Shown in pieces: positions 1,356 to 9,998 of a stretch of 32,000 nt of DNA. Numbering within the stretch: position 1 is the stretch's first letter; every line of letters starts with the position of its first letter. The notes beneath the pieces were generated by a model. It did no database searches. It saw only the letters and a program-made list of their open reading frames with translations, and was not told the DNA's origin. This DNA is from Candidatus Methylomirabilis oxygeniifera (lineage in GTDB: Bacteria > Methylomirabilota > Methylomirabilia > Methylomirabilales > Methylomirabilaceae): positions 990,001 to 1,022,000 of the forward strand of contig FP565575.1 in the NCBI GenBank assembly GCA_000091165.1. The letters run 5' to 3'. Both the position numbers and the translations under genes were made by a program.

Positions 1356-1790
1356 TTAGATTGCAGATGTGCAGTAAGCGCAGCGCGTGGCCTCCAGGTG
1401 AATACTAGACAGACAGTGAGGGCACGACTTTGTCGTCGGTGCGACCGGCGCTGCTTCAGGCTTCCTTTTCATGCGGTTGATTTGCCTGATCAGCAGGAAG
1501 ATCGCAAAGGCCACGATCAGGAAATCCGACACGGTGTTCAGGAACACTCCGTAATTGATGGTGGCCGCACCCGCAGCCTTGGCTGCGGCGAGCGTTGGAT
1601 GGTTATTGCCGGAGAGATCGACGAACAGGCCGGAAAAATCGGCCTTGCCGACCAAGAGGCCGACGGGGGGCATAAGAATATCGGCTACAAAAGAACTGAC
1701 GATCTTGCCGAAGGCGGCGCCGATAACGATCCCGATGGCCATGTCGAGGACATTTCCGCGCATCACGAATTCTTTGAACTCCTTAAGCAT
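1356..1790 (-). CDS. mscL: Large-conductance mechanosensitive channel MscL with a C-terminal CxxC..CxxC zinc-ribbon tail
   Basis: [46 protein letters not shown]... is nearly collinear with E. coli MscL. A GGAGGG RBS precedes the ATG at 1790; the track ORF extends to 1871 with no RBS. The tail reads [24 protein letters not shown]. Confidence 0.9.
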
Positions 1791-2055
1791 CTTCGTCCCT
1801 CCTTTTGTATAGTAGCGCGTTATTGTGTCTGCCTCTACGGCGACAGAGGGCGTCGTGGTCGCGCTTTTCACAAACGGCTTTCAACGGCCCCAATTTATGA
1901 ACAAGGGTGAGGCGGCGGCGTATGCAGATCCCCCCAGGTGTCGTTGACCTGTGCGATACGCGATCAGTGAATTGTGCCAACACCCGGTTATGAAGCAATC
2001 GGCGCTTGCGCCCGCTTTCCGGCGTTGCTATGATTCGCAGCGACCTCGATTCGGT

Positions 2056-4228: not shown

Positions 4229-4236
4229 TTTGTTCT
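4229..4236. repeat. Left copy of the 8-bp target-site duplication TTTGTTCT
   Basis: The identical 8-mer sits immediately outside both inverted repeats (4229-4236 and 6220-6227) in direct orientation. Confidence 0.8.
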
Positions 4237-4260
4237 CGGAATTGTTCACTTGACAAAGCA
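4237..4260 (+). repeat. IS left terminal inverted repeat (cargo side)
   Basis: See the mobile-element entry; it contains a TTGACA hexamer at 4250-4255. Confidence 0.8.
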
Positions 4261-4278
4261 TAAGGTGATCTCTATGAT
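4250..4278 (+). promoter_or_regulatory. Sigma-70-like promoter inside the left IR, reading into the cargo gene
   Basis: TTGACA (4250-4255), a 17-nt spacer, then TATGAT (4273-4278). The cargo ATG at 4287 is only 8 nt past the -10, implying a leaderless or near-leaderless mRNA. Confidence 0.55.
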
Positions 4279-4286
4279 TCCAATCT

Positions 4287-5048
4287 ATGGGCAACTTACA
4301 GGCTTCTATAGGGTCCGCTCGATTGTTATTGTTGGGAATTATCAAGCGAGCTTGGTCTTGGCTACTTCTCGCATTTGTGACCTTTCCAGGCGCGTATGAC
4401 CGATACAAATGGATTTTTCCGCACGATATGCAGGTAGCGTCAATGCCATTGTGGGTGTCTCTCGGATTGTTGGGAATTGGGCTGATTTACGCAATGTTCA
4501 TGACCTACCATGAATTGAATATGCAGGCAAAAACCATGCAACACCAACTTGATCCGACCCTTGATATTCTGTGTGGCAACGATCCTCCGCTTGAGGAGCG
4601 AGAAATCTTAGCGGGCAGTCAAGATGTGCAATGGCGTTATTTTCGTATTGGCATAAAGAATATAGGAAGCACAACAGTCGAGGATGTTGTCGTCCGTTTA
4701 GAGGAGTTATATGACTTAGCATCCGACCCTCCCGCAAAGAGCCCAGTTCCTCCCGTGATATTGAGACAGATGAATGATAATCCATTCAATGGACAATATC
4801 AGCAAAGTTTCAGATTGCACCCCGGACAGATTCAGTACATTGACGTTGCGTGGAAGCCAGAGGCTGCTGTGACGATTGACCCCGATCAAATTAGACTGGG
4901 GTATGCTCAAATGTCACCTTCCTTAATTTCATGCCGACGCCATGAACTCTTAATACAGGCCGCTGGCAGAAACGTTCCAGCAAAAAGTCGGTGGTTTTTT
5001 GTAGATGTGAATCAAGATGGGCAACTTATATTCGGGCCTAAGAATTAG
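4287..5048 (+). CDS. Orphan membrane protein (two predicted TM helices plus a ~170-aa soluble domain of unknown family); IS cargo
   Basis: 253-aa ORF. Hydrophobic segments are ARLLLLGIIKRAWSWLLLAFVTF and MPLWVSLGLLGIGLIYAMFMTY. The C-terminal part looks beta-rich (WRYFRIGIKNIGSTTVEDVVVRLEEL...QIQYIDVAW...RWFFVDVNQDGQLIF). I recognise no motif. Spot counts of 60-nt rows give ~42-47% G+C, against ~60% in the adjacent transposase gene. Confidence 0.6.
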   Translation: MGNLQASIGSARLLLLGIIKRAWSWLLLAFVTFPGAYDRYKWIFPHDMQVASMPLWVSLGLLGIGLIYAMFMTYHELNMQAKTMQHQLDPTLDILCGNDPPLEEREILAGSQDVQWRYFRIGIKNIGSTTVEDVVVRLEELYDLASDPPAKSPVPPVILRQMNDNPFNGQYQQSFRLHPGQIQYIDVAWKPEAAVTIDPDQIRLGYAQMSPSLISCRRHELLIQAAGRNVPAKSRWFFVDVNQDGQLIFGPKN

Positions 5049-5056
5049 GACTGATC

Positions 5057-5209
5057 GTGAAGCAACCACTTAAAGCTGAGCAAGACAAGTCCGTCCGCCT
5101 CAAACCCCTCTCGCTCTACCCGCTCACGCCAGAGCAAGCTCTGTCAGCCTTCATGCAGGTCAAGCCGAAGAAGGGTAGGAAGACAGTGAAGCTAAGGGCA
5201 ACTCAATGA
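5057..5209 (+). CDS. Possible 50-aa basic micro-ORF (GTG start) between cargo gene and transposase gene
   Basis: My own translation: VKQPLKAEQDKSVRLKPLSLYPLTPEQALSAFMQVKPKKGRKTVKLRATQ*. It starts 9 nt after the cargo stop and overlaps the convergent transposase stop by 7 nt. There is no clear RBS and it is below the track's length cutoff. Confidence 0.2.
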   Translation: MKQPLKAEQDKSVRLKPLSLYPLTPEQALSAFMQVKPKKGRKTVKLRATQ

Positions 5210-6141
5210 AACACCAACCGCTTGCCGATGCTGCCGCGAATGGCCTCAACAGTGCGCTCACCGTCCGTGACGGTTCGGTGATCCCATCGGAAGCCGAACT
5301 CGTCGCAGTAGCGGTGCAGATGCGTCTTGGAGAGATGGTGAAACGTCCCATGCACGCCGCGCTTGAACAGGGCGAAGAACGATTCAGCCGTATTGACATG
5401 CACGTCGCCCCGGGCATACTCGCCCTTGGAGTGTGTGACCGTCTGATGTCCACCAGTAAAGCTATGGCCGATCCCATAGTAGACCGAGGATTCATCGGTC
5501 ATCAGTTCGGCATCATGCCGCACCCGCTCTCGGATAGCGGTCTTGACCGTCTTCGCCGTGACCCGTTCGACCTGTCGGGCATGGAGCCGTCCGCCACCGC
5601 CCCGCTCAACCAGTGCGACAACCGGCACTTTGCGCTCAGACGCCTTACCGCGCTTGCCCAATCGCGTCTTGCCGCCGACAAAGGTTTCGTCCACCTCGAC
5701 GATACCCTTCAAGAGCTTTCGCATCGGCATTTCGCGCATAGCAAAGCGAATCCGATGGGCCAAGTGCCACGCCGACTTGTACGATTTCAACCCAAGGGTG
5801 CGCTGCAACTGAAGCGCCGAGACGCCCTTTTTGCTGGCGCACATCATATGGAACGCCTGAACCCACTGCCGAAGTGTAATGTGCGACCGCTCCATGACGG
5901 TCCCGACCGTGACCGTAAACTGCTGACGGCACCCATTGCATTGCAGCAGCCCATCCCTGACCTTCAGGGACTTCGCCGTAATTCGTGTTGCTTTGCGACT
6001 CTCGCAATGCGGGCAGGTCGGGCCATTCGGCCAGCGGACACGCTCCAAAAGCATCCGCGCCTCGTCTTCTGTCAGCCGAGCGACATCAATCGCGGCCATG
6101 TCTTTCAGATCGGTAAATGTTGGTGGCATGTAGCGCATCAT
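5203..6141 (-). CDS. IS1595-family (ISXO2-like) DDE transposase with N-terminal zinc ribbon
   Basis: 312 aa. The zinc ribbon is CPHCES...LQCNGCRQQFTVTVGTVMERSHITLRQW. It is followed by VEVDETFVGGK...VVALVERGG....MTDESSVYYGI...H.TV.HS.GEYARGDVHVNTAESFFALFKRG..GT.HH.S..HL.RY..EF.FR, the layout of ISXO2-like transposases. Confidence 0.9.
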   Translation of the reverse strand: MMRYMPPTFTDLKDMAAIDVARLTEDEARMLLERVRWPNGPTCPHCESRKATRITAKSLKVRDGLLQCNGCRQQFTVTVGTVMERSHITLRQWVQAFHMMCASKKGVSALQLQRTLGLKSYKSAWHLAHRIRFAMREMPMRKLLKGIVEVDETFVGGKTRLGKRGKASERKVPVVALVERGGGGRLHARQVERVTAKTVKTAIRERVRHDAELMTDESSVYYGIGHSFTGGHQTVTHSKGEYARGDVHVNTAESFFALFKRGVHGTFHHLSKTHLHRYCDEFGFRWDHRTVTDGERTVEAIRGSIGKRLVFH

Positions 6142-6177
6142 CAGCCCCCTTGTTTTAGTGTTATGTGATCTACGTAA

Positions 6178-6206
6178 ATATTATAACAAGGAGTGTGCTT
6201 TGTCAA
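6178..6206 (-). promoter_or_regulatory. Sigma-70-like promoter inside the right IR, reading into the transposase gene
   Basis: On the minus strand: TTGACA (reverse complement of 6201-6206), a 17-nt spacer, then TAATAT (reverse complement of 6178-6183). An AAGGGGG RBS follows before the ATG at 6141. Confidence 0.55.
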
Positions 6207-6219
6207 GTACATATTTCCG
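6196..6219 (-). repeat. IS right terminal inverted repeat (transposase side)
   Basis: See the mobile-element entry. Confidence 0.8.
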
Positions 6220-6227
6220 TTTGTTCT
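6220..6227. repeat. Right copy of the 8-bp target-site duplication TTTGTTCT
   Basis: Identical to 4229-4236. Its last T is the first base of a TTGACA hexamer (6227-6232) facing nrdJ. Confidence 0.8.
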
Positions 6228-6233
6228 TGACAA

Positions 6234-6281
6234 GCACTATATATCGTAGTAATTAAAATATCACTATACTACATATAGTAG
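6234..6281 (+). promoter_or_regulatory. Tandem NrdR-box-like palindromes upstream of nrdJ
   Basis: GCACTATATATCGTAG (6234-6249) and ATACTACATATAGTAG (6266-6281) each match about 12/16 of the NrdR-box consensus acaCwAtATaTwGtgt as I recall it. They are separated by 16 bp (32 bp centre to centre), just downstream of TTGACA at 6227-6232. Confidence 0.55.
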
Positions 6282-6407
6282 CTATGTGGTCGCGGAGACC
6301 GATTCGCCGGGTTAGCGATAGACGGCGTATTTACGTATATGGCATCGAATAGTTGGAATCTCAGCAAATCCGAGTTGCGTCAATTGTCCCAGGTAAAGGA
6401 GGACACC

Positions 6408-9400
6408 ATGCTTGGCAAGGCGAGCGGGTCAACGTTCCACGGAATAGAAAAGGGAGTAGAGGCGACCCAGGCGGAAGGATCCAGACCGACGAAGAATGGA
6501 CAGTGGAGTGAATCAGCCATCCGCGTCCTCAAAGAGCGTTACCTGATAAGGGACGCGACAGGTGTCAAGGAGACGCCGGAGGAGATGTGCTGGCGGGTCG
6601 CGGTGGCCATCGCCAAGGCTGAAGGGCAGTGGGGTAGAAGTGAGGCGGAAGCTCTCCAGGTTGCGGAGTCGTTTTACGATGTCATGGTTGACGGGAAGTT
6701 CCTTCCTAACTCTCCCACGATGATGAATGCCGGCAAAGAGAACGGGATGCAGTATTCGGCCTGTTTTGTGCTTCCCGTTGAGGATTCTATGGAGGGGATC
6801 TTTGAGGCGGTCAAAAGGGCGGCGATCATCCATCAGTCCGGCGGCGGGACCGGCTTTGCGTTCTCGCGCCTCAGGCCGAAGGATACCCTGGTGAAGTCAA
6901 CGGGCGGTAAGGCGAGCGGTCCCATCAGCTTCCTTCGGGTCTTTAATGCCGCCACCGAAGCCGTCAAGCAAGGGGGTGCCAGGCGAGGCGCCAACATGGG
7001 GATTCTCAAGGTGGATCACCCTGACATCCTGGAGTTCATCGACTGTAAGCTGGACGGCGGGATCACCAACTTCAATATCTCGGTGGCTACCACCGACACG
7101 TTCATGGACGCGCTGGCGAAGGACGAGACCTACGAATTGATCGATCCGCACACCAAGCTCGTCACCCGCCATCTTCCGGCTCGCGAGGTCTTTCAACGGA
7201 TGGTCCAGGCGGCCTGGCGGACCGGTGATCCGGGAATGATCTTCATCGATCGCATCAACGCGAGCCCGTCCAATCCGATTCCCCAGGATGAGCTGATCGA
7301 GGCCACGAACCCCTGCGTGCCTGGGGATACGTGGATTATGACCGATGTCGGTCCACGCCAAGTCCGGGATCTTCTTGGTAAGCCGTTTCGCGCTATCGTG
7401 GATGGGACCGGACATGCGAGCGGACTCGATGGCTTTTTCAAAACTGGCACACGCCCCTTGGTACGCCTTCGGACCGTTGAGGGCTATTCGTTGCGTCTCA
7501 CGGCGGACCACCGGGTCCGGAGGGTGACTAGGCTGACCCGCTATGCGTCTGTGACGGAGTGGACAGAAGCTGGGCAACTCCGCCCTGGCGATCGAGTGCT
7601 CCTCCATGATCACCGGGAGCTGACCGGATGGGGGGGAGCCTATACAGAAGGCGAGGGGTATCTCGTTGGTCTGTTAGTCGGGGACGGTACTCTGAAGAGC
7701 GACAAGGCGGTCCTCTCGGTGTGGTGTCCGGAAGTCGTCGCTGTCGCAAACGGACCGTCCGAGATTGGTGAGTCAGGAACCTGGGCCGTGATGCAGACTG
7801 CATGGAAGTACGCAGAATCTCTTCCTCATCGGTCGGATTTCAGGGGGTGGCTGCCCGTTCCGGGCCGGACCGAATTTCGTCTGTCGCTGGCCTATCTAAA
7901 GAAACTCGCAGGCGAAATGGGAATGGCGCCTGGACGGAAGGACATTACGCCTATAATGGAGCAGGCCTCTTCAGCATTCTATCAGGGATTCCTTCGAGGT
8001 CTGTTTGATGCCGATGGATCCGTCCAGGGATCGCAGAAAAAGGGAGTCAGTATCCGCTTGTCCCAAAGTGACCGAGAACGGTTGCTGGCCACCCAGCGCA
8101 TGTTGTTGCGCCTGGGCATCGTTTCCACGCTGTATGAGGGCCGCCGTCCGTCACAGGTTCGCCTGCTCCCCGACCAGCGAGGAGGCCAGCGAGGGTACGC
8201 CACGGCCGAACAGCACGAGCTTGTCATCTCGGGAGATAATCTCCTGCGCTTTGCCGAGCGTGTTGGCTTTTCTGACAGTGACAAGGCCCTCAGACTGCGG
8301 GCGTTGTGCTCAGCTTACAGGCGAACGGTGAACCGGGAGCGATTCACAGCCCGAGTGGTTTCTGTTACAGACGCGGGGACAGAAGATGTTTATGATGTGC
8401 AGGTCCCTGGGATTCATGCCTTCGATGCTAATGGCCTTTACGCCCATAATTGCGGTGAACAGCCGCTTGGACCCAATGACGCCTGCAATCTGGGCTCGAT
8501 CAATCTGGCGAGATTTTATCTTCCCTCGATTCCGGCGGATGCCAGGGTGACGGAGCGAATCGATTGGGTTGGCCTGGAGCAGGTGGTGCGGACGGCAGTC
8601 CGCTTCCTGGACGACGTGATCGACGTGAACCCCTATCCGCTCCAGGACATTACCGAGGAGGTTCGAAACAACCGGCGGATCGGCCTCGGGGTTATGGGCT
8701 GGGCCGATCTGCTGCTTGAGCTTGGCGTTCCCTACGACAGCGACGAGGCGGTGACGCTGGGTAATGAGATCATGGGATTCATTCGGCGAATCGGCCATGA
8801 CGCTTCCGAGAAGCTGGCAGAGGCGCGAGGGCCGTTTCCGCGTTGGTCGCGGAGCATTTACAAGGGCGGGAAACCGATTCGTAATTCCACCGTTACGACG
8901 ATTGCGCCCACCGGGACGATCAGCATCATTGTGGGTTGCTCTTCCGGGATCGAGCCGATCTTCGCCGTCGCGTTCAGCCACATCGTAGGAGACCGGCATC
9001 TGACCTTCGTGAATCCGATCTTCGAGGAGGTGGCGAAGCGGCGCGGCTTCTACAGCGAAGAGCTGATGCGGCGGGTGGCCGAGCGGGGGACGGTTCGCGG
9101 GCTTGAAGGCGTGCCGGAAGACGTTCAACGGGTCTTCGTCACGGCCCACGAGATCGAGCCTGCCCGGCACGTTAAAATGCAGGCAGCCTTCCAGAAGCAG
9201 ACCGATAATGGCGTCTCCAAGACGATCAATCTGCCGAACTCGGCGACGCCGGAGGATATCGCGAAGGCCTATATGATGGCATATGAGCTTGGATGTCTCG
9301 GGATCACGGTATTTCGCGATGGCTGTAAGGGCACCCAGGTCTTGCATCTCGGCACCGGCGCCAAGCCTGCCTTGAGCAACGTCGAGGAGCCCGCGCCGAG

Positions 9401-9998
9401 CTTGGCCGAAGAGCCTGCCGTAGGCGATGCCGAAGTGTCGGCAAGGCAGGGGGCGCCGCAAGCGATCCCAATCGTTTTGAAGACAGGCCTGGAGGCCGCG
9501 CTCAAGGTCAAGCCGAGGCCGCGGACCATGAAGGGCGTCACGTATAGGGCGGAGACGCCGCTTGGCACTGCCTTCGTTACCGTCAACCAGAATGGCGAAG
9601 GGGAGCCGTTTGAGGTCTTCGCCAGCGTCGGGAAGGCTGGGAGCGATACCTCTGCGGTGTCCGAGGCGATCGGTCGACTCATCTCGATGGTCCTCAGGCT
9701 GCCGTCACCAATGTCGCCCAGGGAGCGGGTCGGGCAGATCGTGAACCAACTGTCCGGCATCGGCGGCCGGCGACAGATGGGGTTCGGCAAGGATCGGGTC
9801 CGATCGCTGCCGGATGCTATCGCCCAGGTCCTGGCCGAGCATATCGGCCTCACCGAGCCCGGCGTTCAAGAGATGCAGGCAGCTCTTGGCAAGACGACCC
9901 AGAAAGCAGGCGACATGTGCCCCGACTGTGGCTCGGCAACCCTCGTCTACGAAGAGGGCTGTCAAAAGTGCTACTCCTGCGGGTTTAGTGAATGCTAG
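6408..9998 (+). CDS. nrdJ: Class II (adenosylcobalamin-dependent) ribonucleotide reductase NrdJ, intein-containing precursor, with TSCPD-like domain and C-terminal zinc finger
   Basis: Recognisable segments are VLKERYL..., PNSPTMMNAG, ACFVLPVEDSMEGIF, SGGGTGFAFSRLRP, GPISFLRVFN and RRGANMGIL. EATNP|C...HN|CGEQPL is the split catalytic motif. Further on come TTIAPTGTISII, VSKTINLP, a TSCPD-like block (GTAFVTVN..GEPFEVFASVGKAGSDTSAVSEAIGRLISMVLR) and the terminal CPDCGS...CQKCYSCGFSEC. AAGGAGG lies 7 nt before the ATG at 6408; the track start at 6339 has no RBS. Confidence 0.9.
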   Translation: MLGKASGSTFHGIEKGVEATQAEGSRPTKNGQWSESAIRVLKERYLIRDATGVKETPEEMCWRVAVAIAKAEGQWGRSEAEALQVAESFYDVMVDGKFLPNSPTMMNAGKENGMQYSACFVLPVEDSMEGIFEAVKRAAIIHQSGGGTGFAFSRLRPKDTLVKSTGGKASGPISFLRVFNAATEAVKQGGARRGANMGILKVDHPDILEFIDCKLDGGITNFNISVATTDTFMDALAKDETYELIDPHTKLVTRHLPAREVFQRMVQAAWRTGDPGMIFIDRINASPSNPIPQDELIEATNPCVPGDTWIMTDVGPRQVRDLLGKPFRAIVDGTGHASGLDGFFKTGTRPLVRLRTVEGYSLRLTADHRVRRVTRLTRYASVTEWTEAGQLRPGDRVLLHDHRELTGWGGAYTEGEGYLVGLLVGDGTLKSDKAVLSVWCPEVVAVANGPSEIGESGTWAVMQTAWKYAESLPHRSDFRGWLPVPGRTEFRLSLAYLKKLAGEMGMAPGRKDITPIMEQASSAFYQGFLRGLFDADGSVQGSQKKGVSIRLSQSDRERLLATQRMLLRLGIVSTLYEGRRPSQVRLLPDQRGGQRGYATAEQHELVISGDNLLRFAERVGFSDSDKALRLRALCSAYRRTVNRERFTARVVSVTDAGTEDVYDVQVPGIHAFDANGLYAHNCGEQPLGPNDACNLGSINLARFYLPSIPADARVTERIDWVGLEQVVRTAVRFLDDVIDVNPYPLQDITEEVRNNRRIGLGVMGWADLLLELGVPYDSDEAVTLGNEIMGFIRRIGHDASEKLAEARGPFPRWSRSIYKGGKPIRNSTVTTIAPTGTISIIVGCSSGIEPIFAVAFSHIVGDRHLTFVNPIFEEVAKRRGFYSEELMRRVAERGTVRGLEGVPEDVQRVFVTAHEIEPARHVKMQAAFQKQTDNGVSKTINLPNSATPEDIAKAYMMAYELGCLGITVFRDGCKGTQVLHLGTGAKPALSNVEEPAPSLAEEPAVGDAEVSARQGAPQAIPIVLKTGLEAALKVKPRPRTMKGVTYRAETPLGTAFVTVNQNGEGEPFEVFASVGKAGSDTSAVSEAIGRLISMVLRLPSPMSPRERVGQIVNQLSGIGGRRQMGFGKDRVRSLPDAIAQVLAEHIGLTEPGVQEMQAALGKTTQKAGDMCPDCGSATLVYEEGCQKCYSCGFSEC
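7314..8450 (+). mobile_element. 379-aa intein with LAGLIDADG homing-endonuclease domain, inserted before the catalytic Cys of nrdJ
   Basis: The intein starts with Cys (CVPGDTWIMTDVG, block A). Block B TxxH is present (LRLTADHRV). Two LAGLIDADG motifs are present (YLVGLLVGDGTL and FLRGLFDADGSV). Blocks F/G read VYDVQVPGIHAFDANGLYAHN, followed by the +1 Cys of CGEQPL. Removing 7314-8450 restores ATNPCGEQPL in frame. Confidence 0.9.

Follow-up and report, generated by a model that had tools for sequence, protein, structure and literature searches.

A 32,000-nucleotide stretch of the genome of Candidatus Methylomirabilis oxygeniifera (GenBank assembly GCA_000091165.1, contig FP565575.1, positions 990,001 to 1,022,000; hereafter "the window", whose own coordinates are used throughout) carries an intact 1,983-bp element of the IS1595 family of insertion sequences (IS) at positions 4237-6219. 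Besides a transposase gene the element contains a 253-amino-acid (aa) and a 50-codon open reading frame (ORF), both internal. Its bounds are given by the repeats that flank it. Terminal inverted repeats of 24 nt, 83% complementary to each other (pair I2), lie at 4237-4260 (CGGAATTGTTCACTTGACAAAGCA, plus strand) and 6196-6219 (reverse complement CGGAAATATGTACTTGACAAAGCA, minus strand), and a perfect 8-bp target duplication, TTTGTTCT, is found immediately outside at 4229-4236 and 6220-6227. At these fixed positions such a duplication is expected by chance with a probability of about 1.5e-5, and 8 bp is the norm for the IS1595 family (PMC8101967). The left repeat recurs identically in contigs L001, L009 and L010 and nearly identically in L002 and L003. 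The predicted empty site prior to insertion reads GCGCATTTTGTTCTTGACAAGCAC. Within the window neither a second copy of the IS nor any RNA family of Rfam was detected.

The three genes between the repeats lie exactly where an initial annotation of this DNA had drawn them. The passenger gene (4287-5048, plus strand, ATG start, 253 aa) is followed on the same strand by the gene for a basic micro-protein (5057-5209, GTG start, 50 aa), and both are convergent with the transposase ORF (5203-6141, minus strand, 312 aa). The transposase matches Pfam DDE_Tnp_IS1595 (PF12762; E-value 2.4e-40; score 138.5 bits, cut-off 27), Zn_ribbon_IS1595 (PF12760; 3.8e-15, residues 24-74) and NCBIfam transpos_IS1595 (NF033547; 1.3e-61). 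An N-terminal Zn-ribbon (Zn_Tnp_IS1595) is present in all IS1595 groups but IS1016 (PMC8101967). Judged from the sequence, transposase translation likely starts at the second ATG (6138), where the homologues also begin (MRY...) and which is preceded at a distance of 6 nt by a GGGGG Shine-Dalgarno sequence. A promoter-like site for this gene at 6178-6206 (minus strand) has its -35 hexamer TTGACA inside the right repeat, a 17-nt spacer and the -10 hexamer TAATAT, and agrees with the consensus at 10 of 12 positions.

The element thus combines the DDE_Tnp_IS1595 catalytic domain, the Zn-ribbon, inverted repeats and an 8-bp duplication, as is characteristic of the family. IS1595 elements have been described with a single transposase gene (PMC8101967), whereas here a conserved micro-protein gene accompanies the transposase, even in copies that carry no cargo. 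This second backbone gene is a departure from the usual description of the family and is still compatible with membership. The element ends with CGGAATT on the left and CGGAAAT on the right, and the catalytic region of the transposase reads NTAESFFALFKR (E, then K at +7). We take the ISNha5 subgroup to be marked by ends of the form CGGnnTT, a DDE(R/K) motif and passenger genes; the left end fits, which we treat as a lead only, and the size range that we presume for ISNha5 exceeds the 1,983 bp found here.

Copies elsewhere show the mobility of the whole unit. Contig L001 aligns with exactly 4237-6219 (L001 157-2132) at 85.5% identity and has an unrelated left flank, and contig L002 (1,980 bp) consists of the element alone, at about 70% identity to that of the window. 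Other cargo-bearing copies have 8-bp duplications of their own (TTTCATTT in L005/L008, GGGAAAAT in L068/L070 and TTCCGATT in L043). From these end-to-end matches and the separate duplications of the sister copies it follows that passenger and IS transpose together as one unit. When 5.8 billion proteins were searched by word index, only five homologues of the 253-aa protein turned up in addition to the gene call of the window itself, and all five (P0001, P0003, P0004, P0005 and P0006) adjoin an IS1595 transposase. Four more contigs from the micro-protein scan reported below (L068, L069, L070 and L087) encode members of the 253-aa family, namely two divergent proteins, one of 263 and one of 260 aa; an IS1595 transposase was seen in L068, L070 and L087 and not in the 2-kb contig L069. 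The claim of the initial annotation that the gene is IS cargo is borne out by its position inside repeats and duplication, and the check it had proposed, whether homologues are repeatedly linked to IS1595 transposases, came out positive for every close homologue. We regard the cargo anatomy of 4237-6219 as practically certain.

Passenger-carrying members of the IS1595 family, named "transporter IS", were described in 2009 by Siguier, Gagnevin and Chandler, as far as the papers citing that work relate (PMC11891212, PMC2853133, PMC8101967); one example is ISNha5 with its regulators. The element of the window, whose cargo sits inside the repeats and the duplication and which is kept as a unit in L001 and L002, shares with these the Zn-ribbon and DDE_Tnp_IS1595 transposase, the terminal repeats, the 8-bp duplication and the placement of the passenger inside the repeats. 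It differs by the second conserved backbone gene and the recurrent cargo slot adjacent to it in its lineage, and by a passenger that is an uncharacterised two-helix beta-sandwich protein.

The mosaic composition first noticed in this element was confirmed, with a G+C content of 46.1% in the cargo, 54.2% in the micro-ORF and 59.1% in the transposase gene, compared to 57.3% in the whole window. The low cargo G+C does not, however, point to a recent capture, as the contrast recurs in every diverged lineage. The G+C content at third codon positions (GC3) of cargo versus transposase is 0.46 versus 0.71 in the window, 0.45 versus 0.69 in L001, 0.46 versus 0.65 in L002, 0.57 versus 0.92 in L005 and 0.46 versus 0.69 in L009 (in L004 the cargo value is 0.54, and no transposase value is given). 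Recent capture as the cause of the low cargo G+C was rejected for this reason, and with a GC3 contrast that persists across all lineages the mosaic of cargo and transposase is old and maintained.

The two halves of the element have also diverged unequally. The window and L001 share 92% identity in the cargo half (synonymous divergence, dS, 0.25) and 83% in the transposase half (dS 0.88), which on comparison of the two sequences suggests recombination or module exchange between IS copies. This gap runs against selection: the transposase is the less identical half although it is under stronger purifying selection (ratio of nonsynonymous to synonymous divergence, dN/dS, 0.058 compared to 0.225 for the cargo).

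A sister element at L009 1803-4152 (= L010 1-2350) has the left repeat, the promoter and the N-terminal two-helix region as in the window, and its protein P0006 has a different beta-rich C-terminal domain. There the transposase gene is co-directional, a second direct copy of the inverted-repeat core stands just upstream of it (L009:2610), and the micro-gene of this element type lies near the right end (L112 3962-4114). Related IS1595 elements that have the inverted-repeat core in common and carry other unannotated passengers occur in GTDB genomes of several phyla. Among them are L017 1-2861 (Acidobacteriaceae), which has three inverted-repeat copies and encodes a 121-aa transmembrane, a 201-aa secreted and a 200-aa two-helix protein, and L013 1905-4274 (Pseudomonadota), which encodes a 225-aa protein of no known kind.

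The putative expression signals of the passenger gene are part of the element itself. A promoter-like site at 4250-4278 (plus strand), with the -35 hexamer TTGACA in the left repeat, a 17-nt spacer and the -10 hexamer TATGAT, agrees with the consensus at 11 of 12 positions, and its -10 hexamer ends 8 nt ahead of the ATG at 4287. This leaderless-type geometry had already been described for the window; its register proved to be conserved, since in four lineages the -35, the -10 and the start codon stand in the same alignment columns with the same 8-nt gap between -10 and start. The -35 is invariant across the lineages, the -10 is TATGAT (TAGAAT in L009/L010) and the start codon ATG (GTG in L009/L010). 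In this region eight promoter-like sites were counted, compared to 2.4 +/- 1.4 in shuffled sequences. The -10 and the start codon are separated by only 8 nt, which leaves no space for a Shine-Dalgarno sequence, and the spacing suggests that the cargo mRNA is probably leaderless. With promoter and start codon so conserved in position, the element would be a good case on which to test leaderless expression at the end of an IS.

Transcription of the passenger would thus run inward from the left terminal repeat, with the micro-protein gene next on the same strand, and the transcript would converge on the transposase gene. No intrinsic terminator was found between the convergent cargo/micro-ORF and transposase genes, and read-through from the strong cargo promoter, being antisense to the transposase mRNA, could act as a built-in down-regulation of transposition. 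The micro-ORF and the transposase gene overlap tail to tail by 7 nt (5203-5209).

In the public gene call the protein (P0002, 201 aa) begins only with Met53 (window 4443). In the long form, codons 1-52 are under purifying selection (dN/dS 0.20 versus L001 and 0.19 versus L002), and the amino acids before Met53 are conserved in L001, L002/L003 and L009/L010. Together with the register of promoter and start codon this favours the 253-aa form, and the public call probably misses the first of two hydrophobic helices. The cargo ORF keeps its full length even in lineages whose protein identity has fallen to about 52% (to 66% among those that conserve the N-terminal region as well).

The micro-protein (core RLKPLSLYPLTPEQALSAFMQVKPKK) had been seen as a small basic ORF filling the gap up to the transposase gene, a description that does not do it justice. 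Its amino-acid sequence is conserved in L001, L002 and L004 and more weakly in L005/L008, with dN/dS values of 0.11-0.25. A profile search returned about 35 significant homologues of 42-74 aa with the core RLKPLSLYPLTPEQALSAFMRV(D/N/K)PKK and basic tails. Over the core of the micro-ORF the codon-position entropy is 0.64 bits at position 1 and 0.37 bits at position 2 and rises to 1.45 bits at position 3, a pattern that marks it as protein-coding. Scanning metagenomes and IMG/VR with the micro-protein motif yielded 87 loci (L046-L132); ORF and hidden Markov model analysis detected the micro-ORF in 83 of them, 47 of which also have an IS1595 transposase; among the remaining contigs many are not long enough to reveal it.

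Four arrangements were found. In ten cargo-less loci (e.g. L053, L073, L077, L086, L089 and L093) the micro-gene directly follows the transposase gene at a distance of -18 to +39 nt. In a second arrangement a cargo of 72-964 aa stands between transposase and micro-gene, and in a third cargo and micro-gene are convergent with the transposase gene as in the window. In the fourth the motif forms an in-frame fusion with the C-terminal end of restriction-modification proteins about 835 aa long, which are of N6-methyltransferase/specificity type and lie directly downstream of an IS1595 transposase (L085 2107-4614, L094 2123-4630 and L132 950-3460). The 83 loci hold 35 cargo clusters, most of them unannotated. 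Recognisable cargos include N6_Mtase+Methylase_S, Eco57I/MmeI-type, GmrSD_N+HNH, N6_N4_Mtase+Mrr_cat, SfiI-type and HNH proteins; several small membrane proteins are among the orphans (L110, L064, L047 and L104). Since the micro-protein is present both in cargo-less copies and next to unrelated cargos, it is a backbone part of the IS lineage that marks a cargo slot. From its basic tails one may guess that it is a regulator that binds DNA or the transposase.

The same survey bears on the idea of an addiction module, in which the membrane protein would be the toxin, the micro-protein its antitoxin or repressor, and post-segregational killing would stabilise the IS or its replicon. Both genes are adjacent on the same strand within the IS, both are under purifying selection, and the pairing recurs in L001, L002, L004 and L068, all of which such a module would share. 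An antitoxin is expected to be specific for its toxin, however, and here the micro-gene directly follows the transposase gene in cargo-less copies, is also found behind cargos of other kinds (in L043 a soluble protein of 268 aa, elsewhere restriction-modification genes) and is even fused in frame to such an enzyme in L085, L094 and L132, whereas the members of the 253-aa family examined outside the IS lineage are without it. That the micro-protein is not specific to the membrane protein argues against a toxin-antitoxin pair, and we consider addiction improbable, the least likely of the functional alternatives weighed here. As the antitoxin of a type II system in particular the micro-ORF was rejected, because its occurrence in cargo-less copies and with unrelated cargos is at odds with an exclusive pairing.

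Pfam, NCBIfam, PADLOC and PHROGs contain no model to which the 253-aa or the 50-aa protein could be matched, and a profile-sequence search of the PDB gave no match even at E<=10. The passenger had been called an orphan, which is right with respect to curated libraries and close homologues and wrong overall: a HMMER profile run against 1.84 billion cluster representatives picked up 234 of them at E<=1e-3, with 56 at E<=1e-10, so that the family comprises at least 234 clusters. Its proteins are mostly 210-280 aa long, and 112 of the 149 members listed have one or two N-terminal hydrophobic or transmembrane segments.

The two N-terminal hydrophobic helices of the original description are recovered by hydropathy and by the structure model alike. 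Kyte-Doolittle peaks cover residues 13-31 (1.83, broken by K20 and R21) and 53-73 (1.83-1.88). An AlphaFold2 model built on a 124-sequence alignment (pLDDT 91.9, pTM 0.81) has helices at residues 2-32 and 55-88, followed by a predicted immunoglobulin-like (Ig-like) beta-sandwich of about 12 strands and about 165 aa (residues ~90-253). In the window, hydrophobic helix 1 corresponds to 4323-4382 (about residues 13-32), transmembrane helix 2 to 4443-4550 (residues 53-75, running on as a polar helix to residue 88) and the modelled sandwich to 4554-5045 (residues 90-253), all on the plus strand. Because K20 and R21 lie inside it, helix 1 is the weaker transmembrane candidate. The family is marked by the motifs PKLEIxFG, RLFRVGVxN, LPxxL(H/R)QM(H/N)DNP, FxLxPG and YIDV and by the near-invariant residues R120, N125, D164 and D186.

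In Foldseek searches the best PDB matches of the model are Kir6.x, Kir2.2 and KirBac3.1 (E 1.5e-5 to 1e-3, TM-score 0.25-0.32, root-mean-square deviation 11-15 A); among the BFVD viral models the TM-score is at most 0.46, with weak matches to uncharacterised transmembrane proteins. One could take the channel matches to mean that the protein has no role in conflict at all and hitch-hikes as, for example, a subunit of a Kir-like channel or a component of envelope or scaffold, its domain being a generic oligomerisation domain that also occurs fused to TIR and HNH modules (see below). Kir and KirBac proteins do combine two transmembrane helices with a cytoplasmic Ig-like beta-sandwich, and a likeness to DUF11/DUF7507 surface-protein repeats is seen in the first half of the sandwich. 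Yet the low TM-scores and large deviations, the lack of sequence similarity and an inter-helix loop, PGAYDRYKWIFPHDMQVAS, that has neither a pore helix nor a TxGYG selectivity filter all speak against a channel. Nor would a housekeeping gene be expected to be confined to IS copies, to be swapped onto TIR and HNH modules, or to be absent from a pattern scan of 185,579 genomes, which covers close relatives only. We thus consider a role outside conflict unlikely. Kir channel identity as such was rejected on the TM-scores and the absence of a TxG(Y/F)G filter from PGAYDRYKWIFPHDMQVAS; the likeness is architectural only.

The same data dispose of the possibility, raised in the initial annotation, of a decaying captured fragment, whose ORFs would be relics or chance. 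Low G+C and the lack of any library match are what such a fragment would show. A cargo dN/dS of about 0.2, an ORF intact across lineages, a confident fold, the codon-position entropy of the micro-ORF and the intact repeats and target duplication are not, and selection, fold and codon entropy effectively refute a scenario to which we assign almost no probability.

What points to a function is the domain company of the beta-sandwich. Seven family members are longer and have no transmembrane helices, and six of these (P0028, P0146, P0065, P0137, P0032 and P0115) carry a recognisable module before the common C-terminal domain, in which all motifs are kept. A CAP12/Pycsar-type TIR domain (PF10137) precedes it in P0028 (5.4e-26) and P0146 (1.8e-25), TIR_2 in P0065 (8.7e-9), P0137 (5.2e-9) and, weakly, P0032, and in P0115 an HNH domain of the type known from antiphage systems that rely on signalling by cyclic oligonucleotides (CBASS; PADLOC PDC-M68A 4.5e-26, "Effector Endonuclease" 1.9e-17). 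PADLOC matches in the fused relatives (PDC-S35, PDC-M68A and CBASS effectors) are confined to these N-terminal TIR and HNH parts. Because transmembrane, TIR and HNH modules are swapped onto one constant domain, as in abortive-infection effectors, we propose that the 253-aa protein may be a sensor-effector of conflict or defence; on this analogy we put the protein's role at just short of even odds. Indirect evidence for the defence or addiction idea of the initial annotation thus lies in these fusions, and further in the restriction genes that the IS lineage carries in the corresponding slot; the gene neighbours of P0065, P0115 and P0158 given below are counted on the same side. Defence or conflict is the best-supported functional reading, and one at which we arrive wholly by inference.

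The full explanation that we favour, a transporter IS with a stand-alone sensor-effector passenger, has in our estimate a probability of about 0.5. The element is an intact transporter IS of recent insertion, and its backbone consists of the Zn-ribbon/DDE transposase and the basic micro-protein of about 50 aa. Its passenger would be an inner-membrane protein in which a polar helix connects two N-terminal helices to a cytoplasmic Ig-like beta-sandwich, transcribed inward from the near-consensus promoter of the left repeat and translated leaderless. The sandwich would be the constant sensing or regulatory module of a stand-alone abortive-infection or conflict protein, and the helices one of several interchangeable killing modules, in place of the TIR, Cap12-type TIR or HNH of its relatives. 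A trigger, either a phage component or a small ligand, would lead to oligomerisation and membrane damage. The IS could benefit by carrying a gene that helps its host or that the host cannot easily lose.

A sub-case of this explanation, in our view unlikely, is that of an orphan effector of nucleotide-signalling immunity encoded elsewhere: the ligand of the sandwich would be a cyclic or linear nucleotide produced in trans, or else a housekeeping nucleotide would keep the sandwich inactive, as happens with OptE in Panoptes, and the helices would then perforate the membrane. The set of N-terminal modules (two helices, TIR, Cap12-TIR and HNH) matches that of CBASS and Pycsar effectors, S-2TM-beta proteins operate in a like manner (PMC12657218), and a strongly conserved polar cluster (R120, N125, H/N163-D164-N165 and D186) is at hand. 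On the other side, genes for a cyclase, SMODS or mCpol are absent from the window and from the neighbourhoods examined, the domain is unmatched by the PADLOC models of CBASS/Pycsar effectors, the 50 PDB matches listed (52 at E<=0.001) do not include Cap15, and the fold, a sandwich of about 12 strands and about 165 aa, is not described as a barrel.

Two known groups of effectors invite a closer comparison. S-2TM-beta effectors (Cap15, OptE), the best-studied parallel, consist of a two-pass membrane element and a beta-rich sensor, and their oligomerisation disrupts the inner membrane (PMC12657218). The passenger resembles them in its order of a putative two-helix membrane element, with helix 1 only weakly hydrophobic, and a soluble beta-rich domain, similar in overall size. 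It differs in having no PADLOC profile similarity and no partner cyclase gene, in its larger Ig-like sandwich, and in that the membrane element is obligately fused in S-2TM-beta proteins, whereas the domain of the window's protein also occurs on TIR and HNH modules. Membership in this group is for these reasons not supported. With CBASS and Pycsar effectors (TIR-SAVED, HNH-SAVED/Cap5, Cap12, PycTIR and PycTM) the family shares interchangeable transmembrane, TIR, Cap12-TIR and HNH modules on a constant domain; that domain is here not SAVED, STING, CARF or cNMP-binding, has no curated model, and its genes appear to stand alone.

Several observations weigh against a defence role of the passenger and have to be set beside the domain swaps. 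The 253-aa protein has no match to any PADLOC-DB v2 model at E<=1. No match to the cargo was obtained by tblastn against PLSDB plasmids and INPHARED phages, no member of the 253-aa family in a scan of IMG/VR with the family sub-alignment, and no relative in 185,579 GTDB species genomes with patterns drawn from the five closest sequences (alignment A2). None of the six neighbourhoods of distant family members that were examined is an obvious defence island. The structural matches are weak, and Ig-like sandwiches are generic interaction modules; the two-pass topology is uncertain in view of the two charged residues in helix 1. A membrane toxin behind a near-consensus constitutive promoter needs tight post-translational control, which is here assumed. 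Finally, the restriction cargos belong to sister elements and not to the copy in the window.

In the neighbourhoods of distant members the genes appear to stand alone. P0065 has resolvase and DUF932 genes as neighbours and P0115 has SNase and SRAP genes; the two-helix relative P0158 adjoins an RHS toxin that has a Barstar-family gene next to it. P0007, P0008 and P0013 have no match to any PADLOC-DB v2 model. The distant member P0009 (E 7e-30; L026 5075-6616) lies 13 nt from a convergent gene for a 273-aa DDE transposase of another type (DDE_Tnp_IS240 5.5e-7 and a weak IS1 match), and as no flanking inverted repeats were found its status as a passenger is unproven.

A wider and more tentative proposal, to which we give clearly less than even odds, joins two claims: the beta-sandwich (~88-253) may be a new sensor domain of single-gene abortive infection, and this IS1595 lineage, not recognised before, a miniature shuttle for defence genes with leaderless cargo expression from a repeat promoter. 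The slot between transposase and micro-gene, or beside the micro-gene where the transposase is inverted, would then turn over restriction enzymes and membrane effectors. Variable cargo rich in restriction and other defence genes is also known from defence-carrying transposons such as those with Tn7-like cargo (PMC8649781). Elements of the present lineage differ in being only 2-4 kb long, with one or two cargo genes, a DDE transposase of the IS1595 type and the cargo beside a micro-gene.

Compared to the libraries and literature searched, three things appear to be new: the passenger domain family with its TIR/HNH/transmembrane modularity, a micro-protein conserved within an IS family for which a single gene has been described, and, in this lineage, a cargo slot rich in restriction and defence genes. 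Should the passenger act in defence or abortive infection, its domain would represent a prokaryotic immune sensor family that Pfam, NCBIfam, PADLOC and PHROGs do not cover, and the smallest transposable elements, beyond Tn7-like transposons, plasmids and prophages, would also carry immune genes as single-gene payloads. The micro-protein would then be an unreported second backbone component and, as a marker of the slot, could be used for mining further orphan defence genes.

Some minor observations concern the flanks of the element and other genes of the window. The right edge of the IS lies directly upstream of a TTGACA hexamer (6227-6232) and two AT-rich palindromes, ACTATATATCGTAGT and ACTATACTACATATAGTAG (6220-6338), which by their sequence look like NrdR boxes ahead of a ribonucleotide reductase gene. 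On the right the flanking sequence TTCTTGACAAGCA is similar to the inverted-repeat core ACTTGACAAAGCA (pair I23). The insertion may affect nrd regulation, or the likeness of the flank may reflect a target preference. The ribonucleotide reductase ORF itself (6339-9998, 1,219 aa) contains, according to its translation, an intein-like insert between NPCVPGDTW and LYAHNCGEQ. On the other side of the element, an MscL-like ORF (1356-1871, minus strand) has an unusual C-terminal tail of the form CxxC...CxxC.

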